Positions 2,383 to 35,709 of a DNA stretch of 64,000 nt are shown here, piece after piece; the stretch's first letter is position 1; every line of letters begins with the position of its first letter. The translations under genes and the position numbers were made by a program. The stretch comes from an uncultured Gammaproteobacteria bacterium (GTDB lineage: Bacteria > Patescibacteriota > Patescibacteriia > UBA11705 > DATKZF01): contig CAYPKD010000005.1 in the NCBI GenBank assembly GCA_964411255.1, forward strand, positions 109,631-173,630. The letters are read 5' to 3'. The notes beneath the pieces are model-generated. The model ran no database searches. It had not been told where the DNA came from and worked only from the letters and a program-made list of their open reading frames with translations.

Positions 2383-4635
2383 TTATTCTTTTTCATCTTT
2401 TTTTTCTTTTTCCGCCTTACCAGTATAAGTACACTCTTTATTTGAACATCTGACCGTTCCTTTTGGCCCCAGCACTAGCTGTGATTCACAGTCTGGGCAT
2501 TTTTTATTAACTGGCTTTGACCAAAAGACCTGTTTGCAGTCTGGATAGCTCGAGCAGCCATAAAAAGTCCTGCCTTTTTTAGATTTTCTTTCTATAATGT
2601 CGCCCTTTTTACAGTCTGGACATTTTACCCCGGTCTTTATTAATATTGACTTAATAGTTTTGCATTCAGGATATTTGCTGCAGCCTAAAAATTTTCCATA
2701 CCGGCCGTGCTTGACCTGCATTGGCGCGCCGCATTTTTCACATTTTTCTTTTGTTAATTCCGGTTCTTCAGTTTCAATCTTCCCATCTTTGCCATCAGTC
2801 GAAACAATATTTTTTGTGTTTTTACAATCAGGATAATTTGAACAGGCAAGGAATTTTCCAAATCTTCCCAGTTTAATCACCATTGGCGATTTGCATTTTT
2901 CGCAAATCTCTTCTGTCTTTTCTTCAGTAAGATCCTTCTTTTGAATTTCTTTTTCTTTTTTTTCTAAATTCTTTTTAAATGGCGTATAAAAATCATCAAT
3001 AAGCGGCTGCCATTTCATTTTGCCTTCGGCAATTTTATCTAAGTCTTCCTCCATATGGGCGGTGAAATCATAATCAACAATTTTTGGGAAATGTTCTACT
3101 AAAAGATCATTGACCAAAAAGGCGATGTCTGTTGGTTTTAATTTTTTTTCTTCTTTGTCCACGTAATTTCTATCCTGTATGGTAGAAATTGTTGGTGCAT
3201 AAGTTGAAGGCCGGCCAATACCGCGCTCTTCTAAAGCTTTAACCAATGTTGCTTCACTATATCTGGCTGGCGGCTGGGTGAAATGCTGGATTGGCTCAAT
3301 CTTTTTTGCATCTACTTTATCTTTTTCTTTTAGCTCTGGTAGAATTGTTTCTTTCGTATCAGTTGAATAAACTTTTTGCCAGCCTAAAAATTTAATTTGT
3401 ACGCCATTAGCCCGGAAAGAATATTTATTTTTTTCATCTTCAATGTCCACTGCTGTCTGGTTCAGTTTGACATCTGACATTTGACTGGCTAAAGAGCGTT
3501 CCCAAATTAATTTATAAAGTTTATATTGATTGTTATTTAAAAATGATTTAATTGATTCTGGAGTTCTGTCAGCCTGAGTAGGACGGATAGCTTCATGAGC
3601 TTCTTGGGCGCCTTTTGTTTTTTTATATATCTTGTCTTGTAGCCCAAGATATTCTTTTCCATATTCTTTTTCAATAAAGTTTTTGGCTCCGCTTTTAAAT
3701 TCTTTTGATAAATTTAAAGAGTCAGTTCTCATGTAAGTAATTAAACCAGTAGATCCTTCTGATCCCAATTCAATACCTTCATAAAGCTGCTGAGCAAGCA
3801 TCATGGTTTGTTTGGCTGAAAAATATAATTTTCTGTTTGATTCTTGCTGCAGAGTTGATGTTTTAAATGGAGTAGGGGCTTTCTTTGATGATTCCTTAAG
3901 TTCTACTTTTGCTATTTTATAATTTTGTTTTTGAAGAGTATCTAAAAGTTTGTTTGCCTGTTTTTCATCTTTGATCTCAAGTTTTTTCAAAGTCTTTTGA
4001 TCGATTTTATGCAACTTAGCCTCAAATTCATTTTTTTCTTTTCCAAAGACAGCTTCAATTGTCCAATATTCATCCTGTTTAAAAGCTTTAATCTCCCGTT
4101 CGCGTTCAACAATTAATCTAACCGCTACCGATTGTACCCGGCCAGCTGATAAGCCTCTGGCCACTTTTTTCCAAAGAAAAGGAGACATTTCATAACCTAC
4201 TAATCTGTCTAAAATTCTTCTTGCCTGCTGAGCATCAACTAAACTAAGATCAATTTCTCTCGGACTTTTTATAGCATTTTCAATTGCTGCTTTGGTAATT
4301 TCATGAAAGGTAATTCTTTTTGACTTTTCTTTTTTAGGTTTTAAAATGTGTTCCAAATGCCAGGCAATGGCTTCGCCTTCACGATCTTCATCAGTTGCGA
4401 AATAGATGACATCTGATTTTTTTGCAGCATCTTTCAGCGCAGTTACGGTTTTTTTAGCCTTTGGCGGAATAACATATTTGGGCTCATAATTTTTCTCAGT
4501 GTCAACTCCCATTTTAGTTTTGGGTAGATCACGGATATGACCAAAAGACGACTGAATGTTATATTCAGCTTTTGGCAAAAATTTTGATATAGTTTTTGCT
4601 TTTGTCGGTGACTCGACTATTACTAAATTTTTCAT
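2383..4635 (-). CDS. topA: DNA topoisomerase I
   Basis: N-terminal TOPRIM (MKNLVIVESPTKAKTI...FATDEDREGE), topoisomerase IA core (catalytic Tyr region ITYMRTDS), multiple C-terminal C4 zinc ribbons (CxxC...CxxC repeated). Confidence 0.95.
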   Translation of the reverse strand: MKNLVIVESPTKAKTISKFLPKAEYNIQSSFGHIRDLPKTKMGVDTEKNYEPKYVIPPKAKKTVTALKDAAKKSDVIYFATDEDREGEAIAWHLEHILKPKKEKSKRITFHEITKAAIENAIKSPREIDLSLVDAQQARRILDRLVGYEMSPFLWKKVARGLSAGRVQSVAVRLIVEREREIKAFKQDEYWTIEAVFGKEKNEFEAKLHKIDQKTLKKLEIKDEKQANKLLDTLQKQNYKIAKVELKESSKKAPTPFKTSTLQQESNRKLYFSAKQTMMLAQQLYEGIELGSEGSTGLITYMRTDSLNLSKEFKSGAKNFIEKEYGKEYLGLQDKIYKKTKGAQEAHEAIRPTQADRTPESIKSFLNNNQYKLYKLIWERSLASQMSDVKLNQTAVDIEDEKNKYSFRANGVQIKFLGWQKVYSTDTKETILPELKEKDKVDAKKIEPIQHFTQPPARYSEATLVKALEERGIGRPSTYAPTISTIQDRNYVDKEEKKLKPTDIAFLVNDLLVEHFPKIVDYDFTAHMEEDLDKIAEGKMKWQPLIDDFYTPFKKNLEKKEKEIQKKDLTEEKTEEICEKCKSPMVIKLGRFGKFLACSNYPDCKNTKNIVSTDGKDGKIETEEPELTKEKCEKCGAPMQVKHGRYGKFLGCSKYPECKTIKSILIKTGVKCPDCKKGDIIERKSKKGRTFYGCSSYPDCKQVFWSKPVNKKCPDCESQLVLGPKGTVRCSNKECTYTGKAEKEKKDEKE

Positions 4636-16803: not shown

Positions 16804-18690
16804 ATGAACAAAAAGGCAAAAATTTTAAAGACTGCTTTATTTTTAGGTATTGTCATCATGGCAATAGGTTTTTTAGTACCTGATTTATGTTTTGCCCAGG
16901 AAGAAGCGTTAACGGTTGTTGGTGAAGAAGCAGGGGTTGAGACAGGTGAGCCGCTCCCAGTATTGATTGGCAAAATAATCCGAATATTCCTTTCAATTTT
17001 AGGAGTGGTTTTTTTATTGATTTTTATTTATGCTGGCTATCTTTGGATGACAGCTGGCGGTGAGGCAGAAAAAGTTGAAAAAGCAAAAAAATGGATGACC
17101 AATGCAGTGATTGGATTAGTTATTTGTTTGTTTGCTTTTTCCATAGTTACGTTCATTATAAATCGTTTAATGGAAGAAGTATTTGAACAACCTGCGCCAT
17201 CATATTATGCCGGATATGGCAGCGGAGGATCAGGCTATGGCGGTGGCGCTTTGGGAAATGGCGTAATTGAAGACCATTATCCGCCAAGAGATGCGAAGAA
17301 TATGCCGAGAAATGTTTTTATTATGGTTAAATTTTATGAGCCGCTAAAGATTGAGAGCGTAATGGATAATGCAGAATCCTGCGGTGATTTAGGTGATCAA
17401 TGGTGTGGAGGCATAAATTATGCAAACATTCGAATTTTTAAAACTGAAGATGCTGAAGAAGATGGTGCGCCACCATCAGATGTTAATAAATTAGTAACTA
17501 AAGGAGAGATGGGATTAACTGCTGATAAAAAGATATTTTTCTTTAGACCCTTCTGTACACCAGATGATACTTCAGAATGTTTAGGCAGTTCAACCACTGA
17601 GACTGATTATAGTGTTTATTTAACATCAGGCATTCAGGGTGAAGATGGTAGCGGTATTTTTGGAGAATTTAATGATTATGCATGGATTTTTGAAGTTGGC
17701 ACCTATCTTGATTTAACTCCGCCAAAAGTTACCAGTGTATATCCAATGCCGCCTGAAAATGATCCTAATCAGGAATTTTTTGCTAATTCAATAATCCAGA
17801 TTAATTTTAATGAAGCAGTGCTGCCGCCATCAGTTACCACTACTAGCGGTGAATCGCCAGATAAAAATAATTCTATTTACATTGCTTATGATAAAGAGAT
17901 TGAGGAAAAATTTGTGGCCGGTACATTTAATGTTGGTTTAAATCAGTTTAAGACTATTGAATTTGTTCCATTAGAAGATTGTGGAGAGGGAATTACAAAT
18001 TCCTGCGGTGAAACTCCAAAATGTTTGCCTCGAAATTCGGCAATTGAACCATATTTAAAATCAGCCAGTGTAAATAGTGAAGGATTAACTAATTTTCCGT
18101 TCAACGGCTTAGTTGATACAGCCGGAAATTCACTGGATGGAAATGAAGACGGCGTTGCTCAAGGGCCGACTGAAGATGATTATACCTGGCTTTTTAGAAC
18201 AAGCGCAGATTTAGATTTGATACCTCCAGCAATTTTAAATGATGTCAATGCATTACGGCCTACTTTAGCTGAAGGTGAAGTTCAGCCTGATGCACAAGTA
18301 GCTGCATTTTTTACTGAGGGATTGAGTGCTAGCTATGTAAATAGCAAAACAGCAGGCATAACCGGTGATAATTGGGCAAAATGGTATGTTTCTCATTTAC
18401 TAAATGAAATTGTTGATGTTGATGAAAACGGACAGGAATATACTGAAACAAATAATACAGCAATTGACATAACTCATGGTGATTTTGATAAAGCGCCTGA
18501 ACCTCCTCCTGGAGAGCCGGAAAATCCTTTTAAATATTATCCGACTATGACTTCAGCCATTAGAGATTTACAGCAAAATTGTTTTTATCCTGCTTCTGGA
18601 CCTGGCTGTACTGATACTTCAGGCTCTTGCTGCCCTGATGAAGCTGGAACGCAGGGAGCAACGACTGATCCATCTTGCGGTTACTATTAA
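16804..18690 (+). CDS. Large secreted/membrane-anchored surface protein (628 aa), N-terminal module shared with 18717-ORF
   Basis: Signal peptide, then two hydrophobic helices separated by the conserved loop WMTAGGEAEKVEKAKKW (VirB2/TrbC-pilin-like topology), then a Cys-containing extracellular region. Confidence 0.7.
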   Translation: MNKKAKILKTALFLGIVIMAIGFLVPDLCFAQEEALTVVGEEAGVETGEPLPVLIGKIIRIFLSILGVVFLLIFIYAGYLWMTAGGEAEKVEKAKKWMTNAVIGLVICLFAFSIVTFIINRLMEEVFEQPAPSYYAGYGSGGSGYGGGALGNGVIEDHYPPRDAKNMPRNVFIMVKFYEPLKIESVMDNAESCGDLGDQWCGGINYANIRIFKTEDAEEDGAPPSDVNKLVTKGEMGLTADKKIFFFRPFCTPDDTSECLGSSTTETDYSVYLTSGIQGEDGSGIFGEFNDYAWIFEVGTYLDLTPPKVTSVYPMPPENDPNQEFFANSIIQINFNEAVLPPSVTTTSGESPDKNNSIYIAYDKEIEEKFVAGTFNVGLNQFKTIEFVPLEDCGEGITNSCGETPKCLPRNSAIEPYLKSASVNSEGLTNFPFNGLVDTAGNSLDGNEDGVAQGPTEDDYTWLFRTSADLDLIPPAILNDVNALRPTLAEGEVQPDAQVAAFFTEGLSASYVNSKTAGITGDNWAKWYVSHLLNEIVDVDENGQEYTETNNTAIDITHGDFDKAPEPPPGEPENPFKYYPTMTSAIRDLQQNCFYPASGPGCTDTSGSCCPDEAGTQGATTDPSCGYY

Positions 18691-18716: not shown

Positions 18717-21700
18717 ATGAATTGGTTTAAGAAAAATAAAAAGTTATTGCTAGGGTTATTAATAATAGCTGGTGTTTTTGTTTGTCTTAATTTTGCGTTA
18801 GCACAAGATACAGGTTTAGAAACAGTAGGCGAAGAAGCTGGTATTGAAACAGATGAGGATATTAGAGTACTTATTGCCAGGATTATTCGAATTGTATTTG
18901 GATTTTTAGGCGTGATTGCTTTACTTTTAGTATTGTACGGCGGTTTTGTCTGGATGACAGCTGGCGGTGATCCAGAAAAAGTAAATAAGGCAAAAAAGAT
19001 TTTAATTAATGCCTTTATTGGATTGGCAATAATGCTTTTAGCGTTTTCAATTACTTCGTTTATTATTTCAAGATTGCAGGAAGCAGTTTTAGGTCCTCCA
19101 TCTGAGTTTGAGGACGGTGATGGTTTTGACGGCGATGGCGGTATTCCTTCCGGAGCTTTTAAGGTAAAAAGTATTCAGCCAGTTGGTGCTTTGCCAATTT
19201 ATAATGTGGTAGTAAAAGCATCGTTTAATCAAAAGCTTGACCAGGAAATGGACGATGAATTACTGCAGAATAATTTTGAAGTTTATGATGTGGCAGATGA
19301 TCGGCTTGTATCAGGCAATGTGGTTATCAATAATTACACTTTAAGGTTTACTCCAAACCAGCCATGCCCTGAACCAAATGAGGATTTATTTTGTTTTGAT
19401 AAATTAAAAACGTACAGAGTGACGTTAAAAAGCGGAATCAGAGATGAAACCGGTGATAATCTGTTCTGCGGTCTGGGTAGTGTTTGTTCAGTAGAATTTA
19501 GAACCGGTGAATTAATTGATACTCAAGAGCCATCAGCATATATTACTTCTCCATACAATAATGAAAAGATTTGCAATGAATTTTTTGATGCAATTGCTGA
19601 TGTTGATGATGACAGCGCAATATCAATTGTAAATTTTTATTTAGATGATCAAAATATTGGAACAGCAGCTCCTCCTTCAGACGAGATTGTATCTTCATTT
19701 ACTGCTTTATTAAATTTTGAAGTTCCTTTGGCTGAAGAAGGTCCGCATACTATATATGTTGAAGCTGAAGATATTGATAATAACATGACTCAGTCAAATT
19801 CAAAGACATTTATTGTGCCAATAGCCCATTGCTGCAATGAAGTACAGGATTCTGATGAGACAGGAATAGACTGCGGTGGAGTAGATTGCGGATCATGTAT
19901 GGGAGAACCCTGTGACACTGATGATGACTGCGCTGACGGATTTTGTAGTGATGGAGTCTGCGTCAGCTATCCGACGATTACCAGTTTATCTCATACAGAA
20001 GGAGCGGCTGGAAATCTAATAACAATTTGGGGATCTGGGTTTGGAGGTTATGTAGAGGGACAGAGTAAATTAGAATTTACTGGTCCTGGTGGTACATTAG
20101 TTGAAGGAGGCATTGGATGTGACCCGGCAAGTAGCTGGACAAAAAGTCAGGTAGTGGTAAAAGTGCCTGATGATGCAGTGACCGGTCCATTAAAAATTAC
20201 TAATGCAGCTGGATTTTGGGACGATACTATTAATGATCGAGGCTGGCAGGGAGAGTTTATTTTAAATCCTGATCTTTCTTGGCCAGGTCTTTGTAATGTG
20301 GTAAATGCTGAGGGTGTAAATGAAGGAGAGTTTGAACAGATTGTAACAGCCAATGGAGAAAATTTTAACACTGCCCAGGGAAGAATTTTATTTGGAGAAT
20401 TTGAAGCTCCAATTACTGGTACTTGGTCTGACACTACTGTTACAGGCATTTCCTTGCCAAACATAGTACCAGGCCGGACATTAGTAAATGTAGAGTTAGC
20501 AGCAGAGCAACTAAGCAACCCTGTAGAATTTTATATATTATCAACTGAAAAGCTACCAAATATAGAACAAGTAATCCCAGATAATGGTGGCATAGGTCAA
20601 TATGTAGAATTAATCGGTACTAATTTTGGCAATTCACCAATTCCAGTTTTCTTTTTAAATGAAACTCTGGAAGGCGGTCAAATGATAGCAGATACAGTAT
20701 TTCCAGAAGGTTGCTCTGACAGCTATTGGTCTGATTCAAAAGTAATTATAAAAGTTCCTCCTGGGATTTCTCTGGGGCAATTTTTAATTCAAATGAAATC
20801 TGAAAATGTGGAAAGTAATCAAATGCCGTTTACAGTAACAGACGCACCTCCTGGTCCTGGAATTTGCGGGCTTGATCCTGATAATGGACCAGTCGGTACC
20901 TTTGTTGATGTTTTGGGAGAAGGTTTTGACATAAATGGAACAATACAGTTTTCAGAAAATCAGCCTGGCACAATTTCTGAAGCTTTAGATACTCTTATTC
21001 AAACAAGAGTGCCAGCTTTGGCTGTGTCTGGCCCAGTTCAATATTCTAATGAAGAGGGCGTTAGCAGTAATACACTGAATTTTAATGTTGGCGCTTGTAC
21101 GCCTGAATCCTGCCAGGAGAAATCTATTTTAGAAGGAGAAATATTTGAATGCTGTACCACAGGCGTTTGTCAGCCAGAAGGTGAGTGTGAAGACGTAGTG
21201 GGAGCTGGCGACGCGGAATATGTATGGATGTTCAGCACTGGCAAGCTACCGATCGTGCCAAAAGTAATTGAAGATCCTACTTGCGCTGACAATATTCAGT
21301 CACCATCTCCATGGATTGATTCTGAAGATGCCTGCACCAATGCTTTGATTGGCGCTAGATTTAATATTGATGTTCAAATGGCTAATATGCCATCAAAGAT
21401 AAAAGTTGCCAGATGTAATAATCAAAATGAAGAATGTTCATTTGTAAACTGCCAAAGTATTGATTCAGACTGTTTTGAAGAAACAGTAACCACTCTAAAA
21501 ACTGCTGGTACAGAAAATAATGGATTTTTAAGCAATTATTTTGTGGTTAGTTCATTAAGCGGTAGTCCTTCTCTTCTGCCAAATAGGTGGTATCAGGTTA
21601 CGATTTTAGGTGGTGACAATGGAGTTAAAGGTTATAATAATGTGGCCATGCCTCAGGATTATGTTTGGCGATTTAAAACAAAAGAAACACCGTGTGAAAT

Positions 21701-24700
21701 TGCAGATGTTATTGTTGAACCATCACCAGGGCAGATCGATGAATTTGAAGGCACTGAACTGTTTAATGTATTTGGCAAGGCAGAAAATTGTAATATTTTA
21801 GATGCTGGACTTTTTGACTGGGACTGGCAGCTGACAAATGAAGCAGATAAAGCAAGTCTTCAAACAATAACATATACTGATACAATTAATGTCACTAATG
21901 AACAAGGAGAAGAAGAACAGCAGGAAATTGTCAGAAATGACCAGGCAGAAGCAACTGGCCTTGGAGAAACTGATGATGAAAATCCAGTAGTAGTTGACGC
22001 TGCTACAACAAGCGAAGAAACTGGTGTTACTCAATCAGATGATGCAGAGCTTTTTATTGACTTTACAGATCCTCGGGTGATTGATTATGGTCCAGAATGC
22101 GATACAGCCTGTATTAATGCTGAAATTTGGGCAACTTTTAATACGAAAATGGATGAAAGCACAATGATAATACCAAATCTTCGCGGAAATTTGGAAAATA
22201 TTTTTATATATAAATGTAGCGGTCAAAATTGTTTGGGATTAACCTCAGTAACAGCTAATTTTTTTGGTACTTACCAGGAGGCAACAAAAACAATAAAAAT
22301 TAATATACATGAAGATTCAATTTTTGATTATTTAGAGCCGAATACTTATTATCGAGTTTTAATAAAAGATGATGTCCAGAGCCAAAGCGGCATAAATTTA
22401 ACAGGTCTTAATTTTGATCATGATAATGACGGGTTTAATGATTCTTTTTCCTGGATATTTAGGACCAAAAACGATGATACGCCTTGCGACATGGATAGAG
22501 CTGAAGTATTACCACCTGTTTATGAAACCTCCACTCCGCTTGAGCAATTAAAATATTTAGTTAATGCCCGCGGCGCTCCAGACGAGTGCAATCCGAACGG
22601 ACAGCTGTTAAATCCGTTTGATTTTAACTGGTCTTGGGACAGTACCAAAACTACAGTAGCGGAAATTACCAGTGAAAATATAAGCACTGAATTCCCAGCG
22701 GATACTTGTTCAGCTGAATGCTTGAATTTAGGAAGCAGTGTGATTGAATCAATTTGTGGCAATGGCGGATCACCTGATTATGCAGAGGAATGCGACGATG
22801 GCAATTCAAATGATGGCGATGGCTGCAGCTCAAGATGTTTATTTGAGCCAGTGGCTGATATCAATGAGGGCGGCACTTGCGGCAACGGACAGCTGGATAC
22901 ATTTGAAGAATGCGATTATGCAATTACTGAAGATGCAGATATATGCACTCCTGGATGCCAATTAGCAGGTTCATCAATTAGCGGCTATGATTGCGGTAAT
23001 AATAATGTTGACCCAGGAGAAGATTGTGATGATGGGAATAATTCAGCTGGCGATGGATGTTCCAAAGAATGTTTATGGGAAGGTAGTGATTATACATTTG
23101 ATCAAATACAACAAATTTCTATCTGTGGTAATAATCAAGTAGAAGCTGGAGAAGACTGTGACGATGGTGATTTTGAATCCGGTGATGGCTGTTCTTCAAA
23201 ATGTCTTGCAGAAGGCAGCCAGGCTATTTGCGGCAATGGCGGTGATCCAGAAGTGGGAGAAAATTGCGATGATGGCAATACTGAAGACGGCGACGGTTGC
23301 TCAAGCGTTTGTTTAAATGAAGGTTCAGATTGGGCCTATGGTTCATTCTGCGGTAATGGAATTGAAGAGACTGGCGAAAGCTGCGAAGCAGAAGGCGGAG
23401 ACTATTTTGGATCACCAGAGCAGCTGGTAACAATGACTGAATCTTTACCAGCAGGTACAAATGAAGATACTACAAATATTATCGCTCAGGCAGAAAATTT
23501 TGCTGGTGAAACGAAAGAAGGGACAGGAAATTTAACATTTATCCAGCCTTTTTGTGTAAGTATTGACCCATCATTTACAGAATTACCAGAACCAGGCTCA
23601 ACAGATGTTTGTCGAAATACAGCGATTCAAATAATTGTAAATCAGCCAGTTCAGCAATCAGGCATTAATGAAGCGATAACCCTGGAAGGACCTTGCTCTG
23701 CAGTAGAACAGCCTGAAGCCAGGGTTCCAAATGAATTAAGGCCTATTAAGTGGATTAAAAAAATAGTAAGGAGAATAAAGCAAGTTTTTTCTCCGTCAGC
23801 CAATGCATTTGGGTTGGTGTTTGACTGCACAATAGAAATAGATAAAATAAATGTGGTGGAAAATGATGATCAGACAACCATAACTGTATTTCCAAAGGAT
23901 TTACTTCCGCCATCTGTTTCTATTAGAGTAGATTATTCTGGCCTTAAAAATTTATGCGGAGAATATTTTGGCATAAATAATTTTATCTTTACAACCGGAC
24001 CAGAAGAAAAGATTTGTTTGGTTGATTTTGTCAATGTAAATCCTCCTGATAAATTTATCACTGAAGCAGATTATCAGCAGACGTATCAGGCTGAGGCAAA
24101 GAGTAATGATGCCAGTGCTCCGCTTAATCCGATTCCTGGATTTTATAGCTGGTCATGGTCTTGGAATTTAGAAAGTAATGATTTAGATATACCAGACGAT
24201 ATTCAAATAATTTCATTATCAACTATGGGACCAGAAGGAGAGGAGATTATTCCTGATCAGAAATTATTGGAAACCGGAGGAGCTAATGGTCAGGGTGATA
24301 TGATTGCCACCGCCAGCATTGAAGAAAGCGAATTTGGAGATATAGGAAATGACATTGTTGGCAAAGGTCACTTTACAATTTTTATTTGTGAAAATCCGTG
24401 GTCAGAAACGATGGAAGACGAATTCGCACGTATGCAATGGATATATGATGGTTGGTGGAAGAACTTTGCATTTAATTTTAAGACTTTATATTGCCGTGAT
24501 TATGGTGATCCTGATAAAACTTCAGATGATTTGCCAAATTTAAAGGTTATCAAAGCACCTGAACCAGAGTTTGCGGCAAGTCCTTGGGATGAACCAGATC
24601 CTGTAGTCATAAAAGAATATTTTTTACTTAGAGATGATAATTCACCAGACGCGATTGCGCTTCGGGTTTATACTAATAAAGAAGGTGTTAGCCCAGGACT

Positions 24701-25487
24701 TTGGTATGATTTGCATGTTCCAAATCCGGGCCAGTATGGTGAGTTGAATGTGGATTGCCTGGCGCAAAATGGTGACTTGTATTGCTACCGTGGCATTCAA
24801 GACGGACGAACCGTATATATTTCCGCATCAAATATGCCTGATGCTGGAGTAGATGTGGAATGTGAAGAATCTGATGGAGGGGATTTTGAATGTCTGTCAA
24901 GGTCTCCAAGTGCGTTTTATAATAATATTTTTGTCTTTTCATACAGTGAAAATGCAGATACTCAAACTTTAGAGATGTATAATCAATTATTAAATAATTT
25001 ACGATTTAATATAAATATTCCAGATACTTTGCCAGAAGATAAATTAAGCATTATTCGAGATACGCAAAGAATACATGACATGGTGTATATTCGAGGATTA
25101 GTTAATAGCTATTTTGATCAAAACGGCCGTGTACCTCTCCTCAATACCGATGGTTCATTTATTCCTGGCACATATGTAGGTGGACAGGCAGTAAGCACCT
25201 GGCCTTCATGGGATATAGTGTTTGGTAATATGCTGGGTACTACGATCTTGCCAAAGGATCCACTCAATGATTTTGGACCGCAATGTGCTGCTAATAATTT
25301 TGATGCAGACACCTGCTATAATTCAGAAACCGAACAATTTTTTAATGATTACAGTAAAAAGAAAGCATATGTTTATGATTATAAAATAGCTGAAGGCGGA
25401 TATTTAATATATTTAAATTTAGAAAATGACTTTGAAGCTATGTTCCCGTCTATTTGTACTGATTTAACGGGCGTTGTTTGCAATTAA
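18717..25487 (+). CDS. Giant surface protein (2256 aa) with N-terminal SP plus two-TM module and Cys-rich repeats
   Basis: N-terminus paralogous to the 16804-ORF (WMTAGGDPEKVNKAKK). Seven tandem CGNG...E.CDDGN...DGDGCS..C repeats (Myxococcus-type cysteine-rich repeat) at about 22740-23400. An additional CCNEVQD...CGGVDCGSC module. Confidence 0.8.
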   Translation: MNWFKKNKKLLLGLLIIAGVFVCLNFALAQDTGLETVGEEAGIETDEDIRVLIARIIRIVFGFLGVIALLLVLYGGFVWMTAGGDPEKVNKAKKILINAFIGLAIMLLAFSITSFIISRLQEAVLGPPSEFEDGDGFDGDGGIPSGAFKVKSIQPVGALPIYNVVVKASFNQKLDQEMDDELLQNNFEVYDVADDRLVSGNVVINNYTLRFTPNQPCPEPNEDLFCFDKLKTYRVTLKSGIRDETGDNLFCGLGSVCSVEFRTGELIDTQEPSAYITSPYNNEKICNEFFDAIADVDDDSAISIVNFYLDDQNIGTAAPPSDEIVSSFTALLNFEVPLAEEGPHTIYVEAEDIDNNMTQSNSKTFIVPIAHCCNEVQDSDETGIDCGGVDCGSCMGEPCDTDDDCADGFCSDGVCVSYPTITSLSHTEGAAGNLITIWGSGFGGYVEGQSKLEFTGPGGTLVEGGIGCDPASSWTKSQVVVKVPDDAVTGPLKITNAAGFWDDTINDRGWQGEFILNPDLSWPGLCNVVNAEGVNEGEFEQIVTANGENFNTAQGRILFGEFEAPITGTWSDTTVTGISLPNIVPGRTLVNVELAAEQLSNPVEFYILSTEKLPNIEQVIPDNGGIGQYVELIGTNFGNSPIPVFFLNETLEGGQMIADTVFPEGCSDSYWSDSKVIIKVPPGISLGQFLIQMKSENVESNQMPFTVTDAPPGPGICGLDPDNGPVGTFVDVLGEGFDINGTIQFSENQPGTISEALDTLIQTRVPALAVSGPVQYSNEEGVSSNTLNFNVGACTPESCQEKSILEGEIFECCTTGVCQPEGECEDVVGAGDAEYVWMFSTGKLPIVPKVIEDPTCADNIQSPSPWIDSEDACTNALIGARFNIDVQMANMPSKIKVARCNNQNEECSFVNCQSIDSDCFEETVTTLKTAGTENNGFLSNYFVVSSLSGSPSLLPNRWYQVTILGGDNGVKGYNNVAMPQDYVWRFKTKETPCEIADVIVEPSPGQIDEFEGTELFNVFGKAENCNILDAGLFDWDWQLTNEADKASLQTITYTDTINVTNEQGEEEQQEIVRNDQAEATGLGETDDENPVVVDAATTSEETGVTQSDDAELFIDFTDPRVIDYGPECDTACINAEIWATFNTKMDESTMIIPNLRGNLENIFIYKCSGQNCLGLTSVTANFFGTYQEATKTIKINIHEDSIFDYLEPNTYYRVLIKDDVQSQSGINLTGLNFDHDNDGFNDSFSWIFRTKNDDTPCDMDRAEVLPPVYETSTPLEQLKYLVNARGAPDECNPNGQLLNPFDFNWSWDSTKTTVAEITSENISTEFPADTCSAECLNLGSSVIESICGNGGSPDYAEECDDGNSNDGDGCSSRCLFEPVADINEGGTCGNGQLDTFEECDYAITEDADICTPGCQLAGSSISGYDCGNNNVDPGEDCDDGNNSAGDGCSKECLWEGSDYTFDQIQQISICGNNQVEAGEDCDDGDFESGDGCSSKCLAEGSQAICGNGGDPEVGENCDDGNTEDGDGCSSVCLNEGSDWAYGSFCGNGIEETGESCEAEGGDYFGSPEQLVTMTESLPAGTNEDTTNIIAQAENFAGETKEGTGNLTFIQPFCVSIDPSFTELPEPGSTDVCRNTAIQIIVNQPVQQSGINEAITLEGPCSAVEQPEARVPNELRPIKWIKKIVRRIKQVFSPSANAFGLVFDCTIEIDKINVVENDDQTTITVFPKDLLPPSVSIRVDYSGLKNLCGEYFGINNFIFTTGPEEKICLVDFVNVNPPDKFITEADYQQTYQAEAKSNDASAPLNPIPGFYSWSWSWNLESNDLDIPDDIQIISLSTMGPEGEEIIPDQKLLETGGANGQGDMIATASIEESEFGDIGNDIVGKGHFTIFICENPWSETMEDEFARMQWIYDGWWKNFAFNFKTLYCRDYGDPDKTSDDLPNLKVIKAPEPEFAASPWDEPDPVVIKEYFLLRDDNSPDAIALRVYTNKEGVSPGLWYDLHVPNPGQYGELNVDCLAQNGDLYCYRGIQDGRTVYISASNMPDAGVDVECEESDGGDFECLSRSPSAFYNNIFVFSYSENADTQTLEMYNQLLNNLRFNINIPDTLPEDKLSIIRDTQRIHDMVYIRGLVNSYFDQNGRVPLLNTDGSFIPGTYVGGQAVSTWPSWDIVFGNMLGTTILPKDPLNDFGPQCAANNFDADTCYNSETEQFFNDYSKKKAYVYDYKIAEGGYLIYLNLENDFEAMFPSICTDLTGVVCN

Positions 25488-31095: not shown

Positions 31096-31287
31096 AGAAG
31101 TAGGAAAGGAGATTTATTGCCTAAATGAATAGAGCATATAAATTTTCCTAATTTAGCTTAAAAAGACCTTAAATAAATATCACATTTTTTTAGGCATTTG
31201 TCTAAAACTTTGTGGGGAAAAAACGTTTAAGACTACTTAAACGGCATATTTTTTCTCTCTCAAAAAGGAGGCTGTTAAAACAAACTT

Positions 31288-33381
31288 ATGACATGGGAAG
31301 ATAATAAAATATTACAAATTAGAAAAAGAGATGATAGAATCGTTGATTTTGGTCAGGAAAAGATTACCAGTGCTGTTTTCAATTCAATGAAAGCAGTTAA
31401 TGAGGGCAGTCAGGAGCTAGCTGAAAGAATCTCAGATCAAATAGTCCAAATTCTAAATGAGAGATTTCATGAAAGATCAATTCCAGCTGTTGAAGAAATT
31501 CAAGATATTGTTGAAGAAATACTGATGTCTAATAAAATGTTTAAGGTTGCCAGATCCTACATCATATACCGCGATCAGCATTCAAAAATGAGAGAGATAA
31601 AGTCAATGGTTAATTCAGATGAATTGATGGAAAGCTATCTAAAAAAGGTTGATTGGAGAGTAAAGGAAAACAGCAACATGGATTATTCGCTTCAGGGATT
31701 AAATAATTACGTTGCTGCCACTATAAGTTCACATTATTGGTTAAATAAAATATACCCGCCAAATATTCGGGATGCTCATGTAAACGGCGATTTTCATATT
31801 CATGATTTGCAGCTATTATCAGCATACTGCTGCGGCTGGGATTTAAAGGATTTATTAATTCGGGGTTTTGGAGGGGTGACTGGAAAAGTAGAAAGTTCTC
31901 CAGCAAAGCATTTTGGCACAGCACTTGGACAGTTGGTAAATTTCTTTTATACATTGCAGGGAGAATCAGCCGGTGCTCAGGCAATTTCAGGTTTTGACAC
32001 TTTTTTAGCACCATTTATTAAATTTGATAATTTAGAATATAAGGAAGTCAAACAGCAATTACAGGTGTTCCTTTTTAACATGAATGTCCCTACCAGAGTA
32101 GGCTTTCAGACACCTTTTACTAACATTACTTTAGATTTATTTATACCTGATAACATGATAGATGAACCGGTTATTGTCGGCGGCAAACCTCAGAGAGAAA
32201 AATACGGAGAATTTCAAAAAGAAATGGATATGTTTAATGAGGCCCTGGTTGAAGTGATGCTTGAAGGCGATAACAGAGGCAGAGTTTTTTCCTTTCCAAT
32301 CCCAACATACAATGTTACCAAGAATTGGGACTGGGATTCTCCAATAATTGACAGAATAATGGAAATGACTGCCAAATACGGAATTCCGTACTTTTCCAAC
32401 TATATTAATAGCGACATGAAACCAGAGGATGCCAGGTCAATGTGCTGCCGGCTACGTCTTGATAATCGCGAGCTTAGAAAGCGTGGCGGAGGTTTATTCG
32501 GCGCCAACCCACTGACTGGCTCAGTCGGAGTAGTAACCCTGAACATGTCACGAATCGGATATGTAGCAAAAGATAAAGAGGATTTTTTTGAAAGAATTGC
32601 TAAATTAATGGATTTGGCCAAGGAGAGCCTGAAAATAAAAAGAGATATCTTGGAAAGATTTACAGAAGGTGGCCTTTACCCATATACAAGATATTATTTG
32701 TCAACTGTAAAAGAACGCTTTGGATATTATTGGAAAAATCATTTTAATACCATTGGATTAAACGGCGTAAACGAAGCATGCATCAATTTGCTGGGAGTTG
32801 ACATTACAGATCCAGAAGGCAACAAATTTGCCCAGCAGACGCTTGATTTTATGAGTGAGAGGCTACACCAGTATCAGCTGTCATCATCTGACCTGTATAA
32901 TTTGGAAGCTACTCCAGCAGAAGGCACTTCGTATAGATTTGCCAGAATTGACAAAGAAAAACATCCTGATATTATTTGCGCCAATGAAAAGGAACATAAA
33001 GAAAGCGGAGCAGAGCCATATTACACGAATTCTACTCAGCTACCGGTCGGCTATACACATGACATGCTCGAGGCATTGAAGCAGCAGGATTCTCTACAGA
33101 CAAAATATACAGGCGGTACGGTTTTTCACGGATTTATTGGTGAAAGAATGCCATCAATTCAGGCAACGAAAAATTTAGTTAAAAGAATTGCTGAAAATTT
33201 CCACCTGCCATATTTTACAATCACACCTACTTTCAGTGTTTGTCCAAAACATGGATATATTGAGGGCGAGCATGAATTCTGCCCAAAATGCGATGAGGAA
33301 ATGGGATATGTGGACAGCGCCCTTTTGGAGTGGAACGAGGAAAAAGAACCAATTGAAAAAATAACAAATGAAAACAAATAA
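31288..33381 (+). CDS. nrdD: Anaerobic ribonucleoside-triphosphate reductase, large polypeptide (class III RNR) lacking an in-frame glycyl-radical motif
   Basis: N-terminal ATP-cone (ILQIRKRDDRIVDF...); class III core; C-terminal Zn ribbon CPKHGY...CPKCD. No RxxGY glycyl-radical motif before the stop. Confidence 0.9.
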   Translation: MTWEDNKILQIRKRDDRIVDFGQEKITSAVFNSMKAVNEGSQELAERISDQIVQILNERFHERSIPAVEEIQDIVEEILMSNKMFKVARSYIIYRDQHSKMREIKSMVNSDELMESYLKKVDWRVKENSNMDYSLQGLNNYVAATISSHYWLNKIYPPNIRDAHVNGDFHIHDLQLLSAYCCGWDLKDLLIRGFGGVTGKVESSPAKHFGTALGQLVNFFYTLQGESAGAQAISGFDTFLAPFIKFDNLEYKEVKQQLQVFLFNMNVPTRVGFQTPFTNITLDLFIPDNMIDEPVIVGGKPQREKYGEFQKEMDMFNEALVEVMLEGDNRGRVFSFPIPTYNVTKNWDWDSPIIDRIMEMTAKYGIPYFSNYINSDMKPEDARSMCCRLRLDNRELRKRGGGLFGANPLTGSVGVVTLNMSRIGYVAKDKEDFFERIAKLMDLAKESLKIKRDILERFTEGGLYPYTRYYLSTVKERFGYYWKNHFNTIGLNGVNEACINLLGVDITDPEGNKFAQQTLDFMSERLHQYQLSSSDLYNLEATPAEGTSYRFARIDKEKHPDIICANEKEHKESGAEPYYTNSTQLPVGYTHDMLEALKQQDSLQTKYTGGTVFHGFIGERMPSIQATKNLVKRIAENFHLPYFTITPTFSVCPKHGYIEGEHEFCPKCDEEMGYVDSALLEWNEEKEPIEKITNENK

Positions 33382-33406
33382 ATTAAATATAAATAAAAAA
33401 TAATAT

Positions 33407-33424
33407 CTACAACCTAGGTTGTAG
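33407..33424. promoter_or_regulatory. Perfect 18-nt palindrome CTACAACCTAGGTTGTAG overlapping the SD of the downstream micro-ORF
   Basis: Read directly; its last two bases are the first bases of AGGAGGGAG. Confidence 0.5.
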
Positions 33425-33443
33425 GAGGGAGTAAATATATCAT

Positions 33444-33587
33444 ATGACTTCACAAAAATTAGAAAGACAAAAATGCGAAATTTATTCACGAGTTGTCGGA
33501 TATTTAAGCCCGGTACAGCGGTGGAATAAAGGCAAAAAAGCAGAATTTTCCGATCGCAAAGTATTTAATCCATCTTCTAGTGACTAG
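33444..33587 (+). CDS. 47-aa micro-ORF encoding the NrdD glycyl-radical domain (RVVGYLSP...NKGK...DRK)
   Basis: SD AGGAGGGAG; the sequence CEIYSRVVGYLSPVQRWNKGKKAEFSDRKVF matches the conserved C-terminal glycyl-radical segment of NrdD (RVCGYLGSP..NxGK...RV). It lies in a different frame from nrdD and is separated from it by stop codons. Confidence 0.6.
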   Translation: MTSQKLERQKCEIYSRVVGYLSPVQRWNKGKKAEFSDRKVFNPSSSD

Positions 33588-33662
33588 CGTTTTACTCTCA
33601 CCGGATGTTAATATATAATAAAGTTAAGGCTTGTTTGGAGCCTTAACTTTTGTTCTAGATTT

Positions 33663-34364
33663 ATGAAAATCAGTGCAATGCAAACATTAACCCTAATTGA
33701 TTATCCAGGGCAGGTAGCTGCTACTGTTTTTACTTTTGGCTGCAGTTTCCGATGTCATTTTTGTCATAACCCAGAGCTTGTGTTGCCGTCCCAAAAGGTA
33801 AAAACATTATCCGAGAAAGATATTTTAGAATTTTTAGAAAAGAGGAAGGATTTTTTAGATGGATTATGCATTACTGGCGGTGAACCGACTATTTGGAAGG
33901 ATTTGCCAGAATTTATAAAAAAAGTGAAAAAGAAGAAATTAAAAGTAAAACTCGATACCAATGGAACCAATCCAGAGATGCTTAAGGATTTAATAGAAAA
34001 AAAATTAATTGATTATGTAGCAATGGATATTAAAGCGCCTTGGGACAAATATGAAAATATTGTTGGAAAAAAAATTGATATTAAAAAAATTAAAAAAAGC
34101 GCAAAACTTTTACTTGATGGCAAGCTTGATTATGAATTTAGAAGCACAATTCTACCGCGCCTACATCCGGTTAAAGATATAATTCAAATGGCAGAACAGA
34201 TCAAAGGAGCGCACAAGTATTATTTACAACAGTTTAAACCATTTGCTAAAATGGTAAATAAGGAATATATAAATGAAAAGCCATACAGACAGGCTGATTT
34301 AAAAAAGATCTGTATTAAAATAAAGCCAATGTTTAAAAAATGCGAGGTTAGAGAAAACGTGTAA
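33663..34364 (+). CDS. nrdG: Anaerobic RNR activating enzyme (radical SAM)
   Basis: CxxxCxxC cluster FGCSFRCHFCHNPE; GGEPT glycine-rich SAM motif. Confidence 0.9.
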   Translation: MKISAMQTLTLIDYPGQVAATVFTFGCSFRCHFCHNPELVLPSQKVKTLSEKDILEFLEKRKDFLDGLCITGGEPTIWKDLPEFIKKVKKKKLKVKLDTNGTNPEMLKDLIEKKLIDYVAMDIKAPWDKYENIVGKKIDIKKIKKSAKLLLDGKLDYEFRSTILPRLHPVKDIIQMAEQIKGAHKYYLQQFKPFAKMVNKEYINEKPYRQADLKKICIKIKPMFKKCEVRENV

Positions 34365-34596: not shown

Positions 34597-35709
34597 ATGT
34601 CTAACGATGTTATGCCAGAAAAGCCAGACCAATCATTAGAAAGTCAATTAAAAATGGCCCGCCCGCAGCGTGCTGAGGTTAAGCGTGTGCCGCTAACGCC
34701 TGATGAAGATAAGTTTTTGTTTTTAATTTTAAATAAAGCAATTGCAGCGGAAAAGGCTGGCGATTTAGCAAAGGCGATTGGATTTTATACAGACTATAAA
34801 AACGAGTTATTAAAGATAAAAGGAAAAAAAGAAGGTGAAAAGACTTTTGAACTGAAAAAGCAATATAATGAACAAATTGATACTTTGAAAAAGGCCGGGT
34901 TGATTGAGCAATTACCAAGTGGAGAAATGGGATTTGTTGATATAAATGGCCAACCAAGAAGAATCCCGACTTATGAAGAAATTTTAGAGCGAGTTGAGGC
35001 CAAGAAAGAATTTGTTGAAAAAAAGAAAGAACAAGGTTTTACGCAACTGCTTTTAGTGCCGTTTGGTATGAAATTGAGTGATATGGCCGAGAAAGCCAAG
35101 GAATTAATATTAAAAAAACATAGACAAGGTAAATTAAAGGGGACAAACGGAGATGAGCTTGAATTGAATGAAGATCAGCCTTTTTGGCTGGCAGAAGAGT
35201 ATAAAGGGGGAGAAGTGGATATTGGTGAAGATAGCGATTTAGTTTATTTTCCAGAAAAGTATGATCAGGAAAATCACGGCGGAAAAACCAAGAAGGAAAT
35301 TATAGAAAAGACAGATGGCTGGGACATAATGTTTATAGAAGATTTATCGGATTTGCCAGCAGAAGGCAAGGGAAAAGAAGTTGGCGGAAGAAAGCAATTG
35401 GAAGCGAATAAAACGCCGGAGCAATATTTAAAAAAAATGAAAGAAGACGAGCAATACGCGGGAGAGAGCGGCATGACGCCTGAAGCTGAGCTGGCATATT
35501 TTATGCATTATTTGCAGAAAAATAATCAGGTAATTGATGATTGGGAAGGCAGCGGTAAAGTTAATTGGAATTTAGGCGGATATTTAAAAAGCTCGGGCGG
35601 CGTTTGCTGTTCAAGCTGGCTTCGGTCTGGTCGGCGGATGCGCCTGTTTTGGGTCGGTTCTGGTCTTCCCGATGACTTTCGCGCGGTTCGTGCCTCGGTC
35701 AGGATTTAG
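34597..35709 (+). CDS. Hypothetical protein; the C-terminal about 45 codons run through a GC-rich segment of non-protein-like composition
   Basis: Charged low-complexity N-terminal two-thirds. The tail SSGGVCCSSWLRSGRRMRLFWVGSG... is encoded by the GC-rich 35580-35710 segment, and the true 3' end is uncertain. Confidence 0.45.
   Translation: MSNDVMPEKPDQSLESQLKMARPQRAEVKRVPLTPDEDKFLFLILNKAIAAEKAGDLAKAIGFYTDYKNELLKIKGKKEGEKTFELKKQYNEQIDTLKKAGLIEQLPSGEMGFVDINGQPRRIPTYEEILERVEAKKEFVEKKKEQGFTQLLLVPFGMKLSDMAEKAKELILKKHRQGKLKGTNGDELELNEDQPFWLAEEYKGGEVDIGEDSDLVYFPEKYDQENHGGKTKKEIIEKTDGWDIMFIEDLSDLPAEGKGKEVGGRKQLEANKTPEQYLKKMKEDEQYAGESGMTPEAELAYFMHYLQKNNQVIDDWEGSGKVNWNLGGYLKSSGGVCCSSWLRSGRRMRLFWVGSGLPDDFRAVRASVRI

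Follow-up and report, generated by a model that had tools for sequence, protein, structure and literature searches.

A probable two-polypeptide class III ribonucleotide reductase with the radical glycine on a separate 47-aa peptide

The anaerobic (class III) ribonucleotide reductase encoded in the analyzed window, a DNA stretch of 64,000 nt, is divided between a 697-aa catalytic body and a separate 47-aa peptide carrying the radical glycine. The same split recurs across hundreds of uncultured bacteria and archaea, although no description of it was found in full-text literature searches, which did not cover most subscription journals. The locus most likely encodes an obligate two-polypeptide enzyme. 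The relevant features are as follows.

31288..33381 (+), nrdD core of 697 aa, with the ATP-cone, the alpha/beta barrel with finger-loop S-M-C-C-R (C386/C387) and the Zn ribbon, without a glycyl-radical loop
33241..33291 (+), Zn-ribbon ligand motif C652-P-K-H655 ... C665-P-K-C668, retained on the core
33292..33309 (+), signature hexapeptide of split cores, D-E-E-M-G-Y (D669-Y674), function unexplained
33310..33378 (+), variable hydrophilic tail of the core (residues 675-697)
33382..33443 (+), 62-nt AT-rich intercistronic spacer
33407..33424 (+), perfect 18-nt palindrome, read as an RNA hairpin with a 7-bp stem (CUACAAC/GUUGUAG) and a CUAG loop
33424..33428 (+), GGAGG, a possible but poorly spaced ribosome-binding site
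33444..33587 (+), 47-aa micro-ORF carrying the glycyl-radical loop (C11-E-I-Y-S-R-V-V-G19-Y) and the C-terminal tail of NrdD
33620..33650 (.), terminator-like hairpin with a 12-bp stem between the micro-ORF and nrdG, flagged by the scan on the minus strand
33663..34364 (+), nrdG, the radical-SAM activase (NrdG2 type)

The two ORFs together make one complete NrdD and no profile positions are missing. The core matched Pfam NRDD (PF13597) over positions 1-552 of 562 at 599 bits (cut-off 26.2), TIGR02487 at 518.9 bits (cut-off 326) and NCBIfam PRK08270 over positions 3-652 of 684 at 1034.7 bits (cut-off 548), with PF03477 at residues 10-99. The micro-ORF matched NRDD 531-562 of 562 (E 1.7e-10), TIGR02487 549-579 of 581 and PRK08270 649-682 of 684, and aligns to T. 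maritima NrdD residues 616-646 and P. copri NrdD residues 712-737. Its Gly19 (codon 33498-33500) sits in S-R-V-V-G-Y. The nrdG product, encoded 75 nt downstream of the micro-ORF, matched TIGR02495 (E 1.3e-65, 220 bits, cut-off 131) and PF04055. The finger loop S384-M-C386-C387-R388, of the double-cysteine type described in PMC9669993, and the residues C652, H655, C665 and C668 were invariant or nearly invariant in two alignments (A3 and A6). The zinc-site role of the latter is inferred from P. copri NrdD, whose GRD is a mobile unit made of a Zn site, a buried Gly loop and a surface tail (PMC11226230).

The micro-ORF lies in frame +2 relative to nrdD, which ends with a TAA stop. The core frame has three further stops inside the spacer and the micro-ORF frame is closed by a TAA 9 nt before the ATG, so that ATG 33444 is the only possible start. 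The sequence-only reading, which proposed a split class III RNR with the radical motif on a micro-ORF, is supported, but some details had to be corrected. What is split off is the glycine loop plus the C-terminal tail, whereas the zinc-ribbon half of the glycyl-radical domain stays on the core. The claim that the micro-ORF lies behind its own SD, overlapped by the palindrome, is weak: the GGAGG shares only 1-2 nt with the 3' arm of the palindrome and lies 15 nt upstream of the ATG, outside the usual spacing, most genes in the window have no SD at all, and close relatives such as L087 have none before the micro-ORF. Translation initiation of the micro-ORF therefore rests on conservation and not on a recognizable signal.

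The identical micro-ORF was found on 13 contigs from at least six samples. The six places read come from six samples and all show the core, micro-ORF, nrdG order, four of them also reaching ftsZ upstream. All 56 homologues found for the micro-ORF are 42-77 aa long, with 50-93% identity, a conserved start and invariant residues C11, Y14, S15, R16, V17, V18, G19, N28, G30, K31, E34 and R38. A profile search of 1.84 billion representatives gave 5174 hits, of which the best 150 are all 48-149 aa, and 137 of the 144 new ones start with Met. A phage search gave only three hits, two under genes annotated as anaerobic RNR and one in an unannotated record. Of the closest NrdD clusters 115 of 120, and over two searches 179 of 208, end after the Zn ribbon. 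Among the 179 core-only cluster representatives the signature hexapeptide is well kept (D 176, E 174, I/M 159, G 172, Y 159), whereas it is absent from the 29 fused relatives. The tail after the last Zn cysteine is 6-96 aa long (median 20) among relatives and shows no conservation.

Among 80 species-representative loci 43 are split: 26 have an adjacent micro-ORF, 8 have nrdG between the core and the micro-ORF, 6 show a micro-ORF with no core in view and 3 are overlapping; 26 are fused. In Halanaerobium saccharolyticum, a cultured isolate of the Halanaerobiales, the order is core (686 aa), nrdG (232 aa), a 112-nt gap and then the micro-ORF, and in the locus L002 no core motif was seen within 4 kb. 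Spacers run from -68 to +187 nt in all three relative frames. The micro-ORF is under strong purifying selection, with mean pN of 0.20 against pS of 0.87 over 903 pairs; the window compared with the strain variant L084 gave pN 0 and pS 0.57. In a tree of the cores split lineages are interspersed with fused ones, in line with a repeated origin, and their tails differ: D-x-E-[IM]-G-Y in CPR/DPANN, an SD embedded in the tail with a TTG start in Thermotogae, and helical heptad-like segments in Elusimicrobia.

An AF2 model of the concatenated pair gave an NrdD fold overall, matching the solved NrdD structures 9d3x, 8p23, 4u3e and 1hk8, with pLDDT 71-81 for the peptide (703-741) and below 50 for the linker (676-702). 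This model is a single-chain concatenation built on a shallow alignment of 29 sequences. A first run with 76 rows (A3) gave no confident placement (pLDDT below 50 for residues 671-744), since MAFFT had aligned the Gly loop of fused relatives to the core tail and not to the micro-ORF, as it also did in two further alignments; a fused-only alignment (A6) fixed the register. MAFFT pairs the segment of the tail from E-E-M-G-Y to W-N with the loop segment from E-V-Y-S-R-V-V-G-Y to W-N, but a profile-profile comparison gave only 21% probability and the W-N is restricted to the closest relatives; the idea that the tail is a relic of the original Gly loop remains speculation. A Zn bridge between the chains through Cys11 of the peptide was rejected, since the core already has C/H/C/C ligands and split Thermotogae peptides have Ala at that position.

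It is proposed, by inference and without transcript, protein, EPR or activity evidence, that the two polypeptides are separately translated and that NrdG abstracts the C-alpha hydrogen of Gly19 on the peptide, either free or loosely bound. The peptide would then insert non-covalently into the barrel, where the covalently attached loop sits in ordinary NrdD, and pass the radical to the finger-loop cysteine. As a further inference, oxygen cleavage at the radical glycine would destroy only a 5-kDa peptide that can be resynthesized and exchanged, not the 80-kDa enzyme, and the glycine would be intrinsically accessible to the activase.

An assembly error or a recent inactivating disruption cannot be excluded from a single window, and the AT-rich spacer with its palindrome has features that can accompany small insertions. 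Both are nevertheless refuted by the independent samples, the predominance of core-only clusters, at least 150 clusters (at 50% identity) of standalone peptides, the conserved start and N-terminus and the purifying selection; a systematic error shared by all those assemblies is implausible given the different spacers and gene orders. Joining of the two ORFs by stop-codon readthrough, programmed frameshift, gene-60-type ribosomal bypass, a small intron or a split intein is very unlikely. The split does lie exactly in a linker, the gap contains a hairpin and a GGAGG, elements that may also occur at the T4 gene 60 bypass site, and some relatives carry insertions of about 320 aa in the core. However, the core frame has four stops in the gap and no matching take-off and landing codon pair is in register, frames and distances vary among relatives, and nrdG lies between the pieces in 8 loci. 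No Rfam family matched at E<=1 other than a chance sRNA hit, the 62-nt spacer is far below group I or II intron size, and a tail of minimum 6 aa plus a peptide N-terminus of about 10 aa cannot form an intein fold. The overlap of the two frames in Thermotogae and Bipolaricaulota at first looked like a frameshift, but this was rejected in favor of overlapping ORFs: in Thermotogae it is explained by AAGGAGG followed 8 nt later by a TTG start.

It is also unlikely, although only 64 kb of the genome is visible, that the peptide is a facultative spare part and a complete NrdD encoded elsewhere is the working enzyme, the core-only gene being rescued only occasionally or having another function. True extra copies do exist: the locus L008 has a full-length NrdD with its own loop and also an 86-aa standalone Zn-ribbon plus Gly-loop protein before nrdG, and Desulfobacterales carry standalone versions of about 115 aa (a search for nrdD on the minus strand near the deltaproteobacterial standalone proteins gave nothing). 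But the core next to the micro-ORF lacks any R-V-x-G-Y and needs a donor loop to work at all, it is itself highly conserved with an intact finger loop and Zn ribbon, core-only forms are the great majority in this clade, and no other RNR was found among the large ORFs of the window that were scanned. As for the palindrome, CTACAACCTAGGTTGTAG, perfect and unique in the window, it is possible, though the less favored view, that it has no role in the split and is a chance or selfish insertion or a DNA operator. One such palindrome per window is not more than chance (dinucleotide shuffles gave a mean of 0.54 and a maximum of 5), the spacer alone folds no better than shuffles (z -1.6), long-range pairing of the two sides of the insertion in a 211-nt fold is not significant (z -1.77), and many split loci have 0-29-nt spacers with neither hairpin nor SD. 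On the other hand, the strain variant (L084-L086) keeps all 14 stem positions and all its substitutions fall in the loop, producing a C(GCAA)G tetraloop, although arms kept with a changed center is also what a dimeric operator would tolerate. L087 and 6 of the other 9 long spacers carry unrelated but strongly folding hairpins at the same place (z -3.4 to -5.1), which points to selection on structure, not on sequence. The hairpin is read as an accessory RNA element, perhaps acting on mRNA stability or on decoupling expression of the two cistrons, and is not part of what defines the split.

A bolder and only tentative interpretation is that the peptide is a diffusible, exchangeable protein-borne radical cofactor, charged by NrdG when free and plugging into any core, the cleaved peptide being released and replaced after oxygen damage. 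The architecture would then have evolved repeatedly, in at least five lineages across CPR bacteria, DPANN and other archaea, Halanaerobiales, Thermotogae/Bipolaricaulota and Elusimicrobia, through a spare-part intermediate of the kind still seen in L008, and the D-x-E-[IM]-G-Y tail would be either a relic of the lost resident loop or a docking or placeholder element. This would answer the question, left open by a 2026 review, whether spare-part proteins exist for glycyl-radical enzymes other than PFL.

Glycyl-radical enzymes are understood as single chains that bury their radical glycine, with the GrcA/YfiD rescue protein of PFL as the only known exception. A natural, obligate two-piece class III RNR would show that the radical loop can work in trans as a routine design, that a native peptide-sized substrate exists for studying how the activase reaches the glycine, and that small-genome organisms have a cheap repair route after oxygen exposure, which would be their only route to dNTPs if no other RNR is encoded. 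In practice, automated annotation and RNR surveys that demand a full-length NrdD will either call these genes truncated or miss the 5-kDa partner, which would distort inferences about nucleotide metabolism in CPR and DPANN genomes.

The canonical single-chain NrdD with its activase NrdG (phage T4, E. coli, T. maritima, P. copri, S. thermophilus) belongs to the same family by profile and fold, with the ATP-cone, the barrel, the S-M-C-C-R finger loop of the T. maritima-type double-cysteine lineage, the Zn ribbon, the R-V-x-G-Y loop and nrdG next door. Here, however, the Gly loop and C-terminal tail are on a separate 47-aa polypeptide and the core ends in a clade-specific D-x-E-[IM]-G-Y motif followed by a disordered tail. 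GrcA/YfiD of E. coli and Y06I of phage T4, the autonomous spare parts of pyruvate formate-lyase, are likewise small standalone proteins with a glycyl-radical loop that must be activated by the cognate radical-SAM activase and must complement a large barrel protein in trans (PMC13450708). The peptide described here is not homologous to the PFL Gly_radical family, its only Pfam hit being NRDD, it has 47 aa against 127 aa, the Zn ribbon stays on the core, and the partner core has no loop of its own, so it is most likely an obligate subunit and not a replacement for a damaged one; the 2026 review states that spare parts are known only for formate lyases. In the split class II RNR NrdJa/NrdJb of Pseudomonas aeruginosa (Crona et al. 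2015, cited in PMC9669993) an RNR catalytic chain is also naturally divided into two adjacent genes that must reassemble, but that enzyme is of the B12-dependent class and its small piece apparently does not carry a radical-bearing residue. In class I RNR, too, the stable radical is stored on a different polypeptide from the one holding the active site, and the C-terminus of the radical subunit reaches over the active site (noted for E. coli in PMC11226230). There it is a tyrosyl or metal-centered radical on a ferritin-like subunit with long-range transfer, whereas here it is a glycyl radical on a peptide that would sit inside the barrel.

The window carries, on the + strand, ftsA and ftsZ, followed by a gene cluster for a class III RNR arranged as follows:

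31288-33381, + strand, 697-aa ORF, the NrdD core
62-nt AT-rich spacer
33444-33587, + strand, 47-aa ORF in frame +2, referred to as the micro-ORF
33663-34364, + strand, 233-aa ORF, the activase NrdG2

The large ORF is an NrdD. It matches PF03477 (ATP-cone), PF13597 positions 1-552 of 562 and NCBIfam PRK08270 positions 3-652 of 684 at 1034.7 bits. The micro-ORF contains C-E-I-Y-S-R-V-V-G-Y and matches the end of the same profiles: PF13597 531-562 (E 1.7e-10), TIGR02487 549-579 of 581 and PRK08270 649-682 of 684. No profile position is missing, so the two ORFs together make one complete enzyme. The third ORF was assigned to NrdG2 by TIGR02495 (E 1.3e-65). A profile of the small ORF was aligned to residues 616-646 of T. 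maritima NrdD and to residues 712-737 of P. copri NrdD, segments which are the radical glycine loop and the C-terminal tail. The zinc-ribbon half of the glycyl-radical domain (C652-x2-H655 ... C665-x2-C668) stays on the core.

The sequence-only reading had left open the possibility of an assembly error or a recent gene disruption, but the arrangement is neither. The identical 47-aa sequence is encoded on 13 contigs, and the six places read come from six samples and all show the core, micro-ORF, nrdG order, with four of them also reaching ftsZ upstream. A strain variant has a 58-nt spacer. A search of 5.8 billion proteins with the micro-ORF returned 56 hits, every one 42-77 aa long and with identity of 50-93%, in which the start methionine is conserved and C11, Y14, S15, R16, V17, V18, G19, N28, G30, K31, E34 and R38 are invariant. 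A profile search of 1.84 billion cluster representatives gave 5174 hits, of which the best 150 are all 48-149 aa, and 137 of the 144 new ones begin with Met. Two standalone micro-proteins from this search (P0266 and P0274) contain a tandem internal duplication of the Gly loop (for example E-V-Y-S-R-V-V-G-Y-L-S-P-V-S-H-W-N-E-G-K-K-E-E-W repeated twice), which is either a real double-glycine peptide or an assembly artefact. On the core side, 115 of the 120 NrdD clusters closest to the window stop after the zinc ribbon, and over two searches the count is 179 of 208. Over 903 pairwise comparisons of the micro-ORF block the non-synonymous difference averaged 0.20 against 0.87 synonymous, and the window and its strain variant differ at 57% of synonymous sites and at no non-synonymous site.

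To check whether the two ORFs might nevertheless be read as one protein, 80 species-representative loci retrieved from the genome collection were examined.

Arrangement of the nrdD pieces in species-representative loci
Micro-ORF directly after a core: 26 loci
nrdG between core and micro-ORF: 8 loci
Micro-ORF with no core in view: 6 loci
Overlapping ORFs (Bipolaricaulota): 3 loci
Ordinary fused genes: 26 loci

For adjacent pairs the distance is -68 to +187 nt, in all three relative frames. The eight loci with nrdG in between come from Halanaerobiales, other Bacillota and Pyramidobacter, and in the cultured Halanaerobium saccharolyticum the order is core (686 aa), nrdG (232 aa), a 112-nt gap and then the micro-ORF. 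One Falkowbacteria locus shows the micro-ORF with no core motif within 4 kb. In Thermotogae the two ORFs overlap, and the conserved Q-G-G in the core tail is an AAGGAGG lying 8 nt before a TTG start of the small ORF. In the window itself the core frame runs into four stop codons before the micro-ORF, and the micro-ORF frame is closed by a TAA 9 nt before its ATG. No Rfam family matches the region, the spacer is far too short for a self-splicing intron and the flanking peptide segments are far too short for a split intein. Readthrough, frameshifting, gene-60-type bypass, RNA splicing and protein splicing are therefore all poor explanations.

The survey also revealed a second, different split point. 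Moraniibacteria, Paceibacterota and Patescibacteria loci (L049 at ~3650-4110, L061 and L080) carry a standalone ORF of 145-170 aa that equals the last quarter of NrdD, from P-[FY]-Y-T-N-S through the Zn ribbon and Gly loop (NRDD 431-562, E 2e-47). It follows a release-factor-like gene, and no core motif lies within 4 kb. Several split-type cores (cluster representatives P0103, P0114, P0120, P0177, P0203, P0245 and P0248 and loci L012, L017, L025 and L050) are about 1000-1066 aa long. In P0103, the one scanned, the NRDD match is in two stretches and resumes near profile position 156, implying an insertion of about 320 aa, which looks intein-like although Pfam gave no intein or endonuclease hit at E<=0.01 for P0103.

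The parsimonious model is an obligate two-polypeptide class III RNR, in which the core has everything except the radical loop, with its S-M-C-C-R finger loop and zinc ribbon intact, the peptide is the radical loop and the activase is encoded alongside. In P. copri NrdD the glycyl-radical domain is a zinc site followed by a buried glycine loop and a tail that runs over the surface, and the domain as a whole is highly mobile (PMC11226230). A cut between the zinc site and the loop would therefore fall where the polypeptide passes from one to the other. An AF2 model of the concatenated pair, built on an alignment of fused relatives, supports this loosely. Residues 676-702 (core tail plus the first residues of the peptide) have pLDDT below 50, whereas residues 703-741 of the peptide score 71-81, with a predicted strand at 709-712 and helix at 726-733, and the whole model matches solved NrdD structures. 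Docking of the peptide is inferred from homology and was not observed. Activation of the peptide by NrdG and radical hand-over to C386/C387 are also inferred, and so is the attractive corollary that oxygen damage would cost only a 5-kDa peptide. PFL offers a precedent for trans-complementation, since PFL-AE installs the radical on YfiD, which then replaces the cleaved domain (PMC13450708).

A neighbour-joining tree of the cores placed split lineages among fused ones, the split lineages being the CPR clades, Nanobdellota, Micrarchaeota, Thermoplasmatales, Bipolaricaulota, Thermotogae, Halanaerobiales and Elusimicrobia. The tree is rough, but the lineages also differ in how the halves end. CPR and DPANN cores end in a strongly conserved D-x-E-[IM]-G-Y followed by a variable tail of 0-90 aa, whereas Halanaerobiales cores lack that motif. 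In the window the motif is D-E-E-M-G-Y (33292-33309), nearly invariant in 179 core-only relatives and absent from fused ones. Its G-Y is aligned by MAFFT with the radical G-Y of fused enzymes, and it could be a relic of a lost resident loop (hhalign probability only 21%), a docking element or a placeholder. Elusimicrobia carry heptad-like helical segments on both sides of the cut: in loci L067 and L069 the core ends R-M-Q-E-L-E-R-Q-V-R-L-L-E-E-Q-L-Y-S-K and the small protein begins M-T-A-E-E-K-Q-I-V-E-N-K-I-S-E-L-K-K-E-M, so a coiled coil may hold the two pieces together. One fused relative, P0163, reads C-P-K-C-D-E-D-D-M-S-P-Q-K-L-E-R-Q-K-C-E-V-Y-S-R-V-V-G-Y, in which the peptide's own N-terminus, methionine included, lies in frame after the zinc ribbon. 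Repeated splitting, possibly with re-fusion, is the simplest reading.

The 18-nt perfect palindrome noted in the sequence-only reading is real and unique in the window. However, one such palindrome per 64 kb is about what shuffles give (0.54), and the spacer alone does not fold unusually well (z -1.6). What argues for a role is comparative. The strain variant keeps all 14 stem positions and all its substitutions fall in the loop, turning it into a C(GCAA)G tetraloop, the close relative L087 has an unrelated hairpin at the same place, and 7 of the 11 long spacers examined fold far better than shuffles (z -3.4 to -5.1). On the other hand, many split loci have 0-29-nt spacers with no hairpin, and it is therefore an accessory feature. 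The GGAGG that the sequence-only reading took as the SD of the micro-ORF is 15 nt from the ATG, and most genes in this window have no SD: only 4 of the 37 predicted starts surveyed have a well-placed SD-like motif within 30 nt upstream, and a fifth (nrdD) has one at -22. nrdD itself has an AGGAGG unusually far (16 nt) from its ATG. Other elements observed around the cluster and in the rest of the window were the following:

31224-31243, 8-bp hairpin followed by a T-run, about 45 nt upstream of nrdD
33591-33619, promoter-like TTTACT-17-TATAAT
33620-33650, 12-bp-stem hairpin between the micro-ORF and nrdG, just after the promoter-like sequence
34597-35709, 370-aa ORF right after nrdG, with no Pfam hit
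16804-18690, 628-aa protein with a T4SS-pilin domain
18717-25487, giant ORF of 2256 aa
47060-56692, giant ORF of 3210 aa

This gene content seems typical of Patescibacteria.

Source annotations simply call both ORFs 'anaerobic ribonucleoside-triphosphate reductase'. No description of a split NrdD was found in the full-text literature searched, which omits most subscription-journal papers, so prior mention elsewhere cannot be ruled out. A June 2026 review of glycyl-radical enzymes states that spare-part proteins are known only for formate lyases and that it is yet to be determined whether they exist for other GREs (PMC13450708). In locus L008 (1385-5256) the gene order is nrdR, a full-length fused nrdD (734 aa, with its own Gly loop), an 86-aa standalone ORF and then nrdG. 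The 86-aa ORF has its own CxxC...CxxC zinc ribbon and a near-identical Gly loop (T-E-V-Y-S-R-V-V-G-Y-I-R-P-I-Q-Q-W-N; Pfam NRDD 510-562, E 1.4e-12) and looks like a true GrcA-style spare part for a class III RNR. Desulfobacterales and other deltaproteobacterial MAGs (locus L023 at 3767-4120, also L036, L039, L041, L044 and L048) encode standalone proteins of about 115 aa with a zinc ribbon plus an NrdD-type Gly loop (M-A-N-M-T-V-E-R-L-H-E-L-F-D-E ... C-E-V-Y-S-R-V-V-G-Y-L-R-P-V; Pfam NRDD 521-562, E 5e-12). In L023 no nrdD or nrdG neighbour is present, whereas in L036 and L041 one NrdD-like motif, unresolved, lies nearby on the opposite strand.

The two-piece arrangement is of real interest to the RNR and glycyl-radical fields, and also relevant to metabolic inference in CPR and DPANN genomes, where it appears to be the dominant form. 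Split RNRs are already known for class II, NrdJa/NrdJb of P. aeruginosa being cited in PMC9669993. The system described here is a class III RNR by every testable criterion except one, namely that the radical loop is on another polypeptide. On the inferred model it works like GrcA/YfiD in that a small protein supplies a glycyl-radical loop in trans, but it is not a member of that family and is most likely not a spare, because the adjacent core has no loop of its own.
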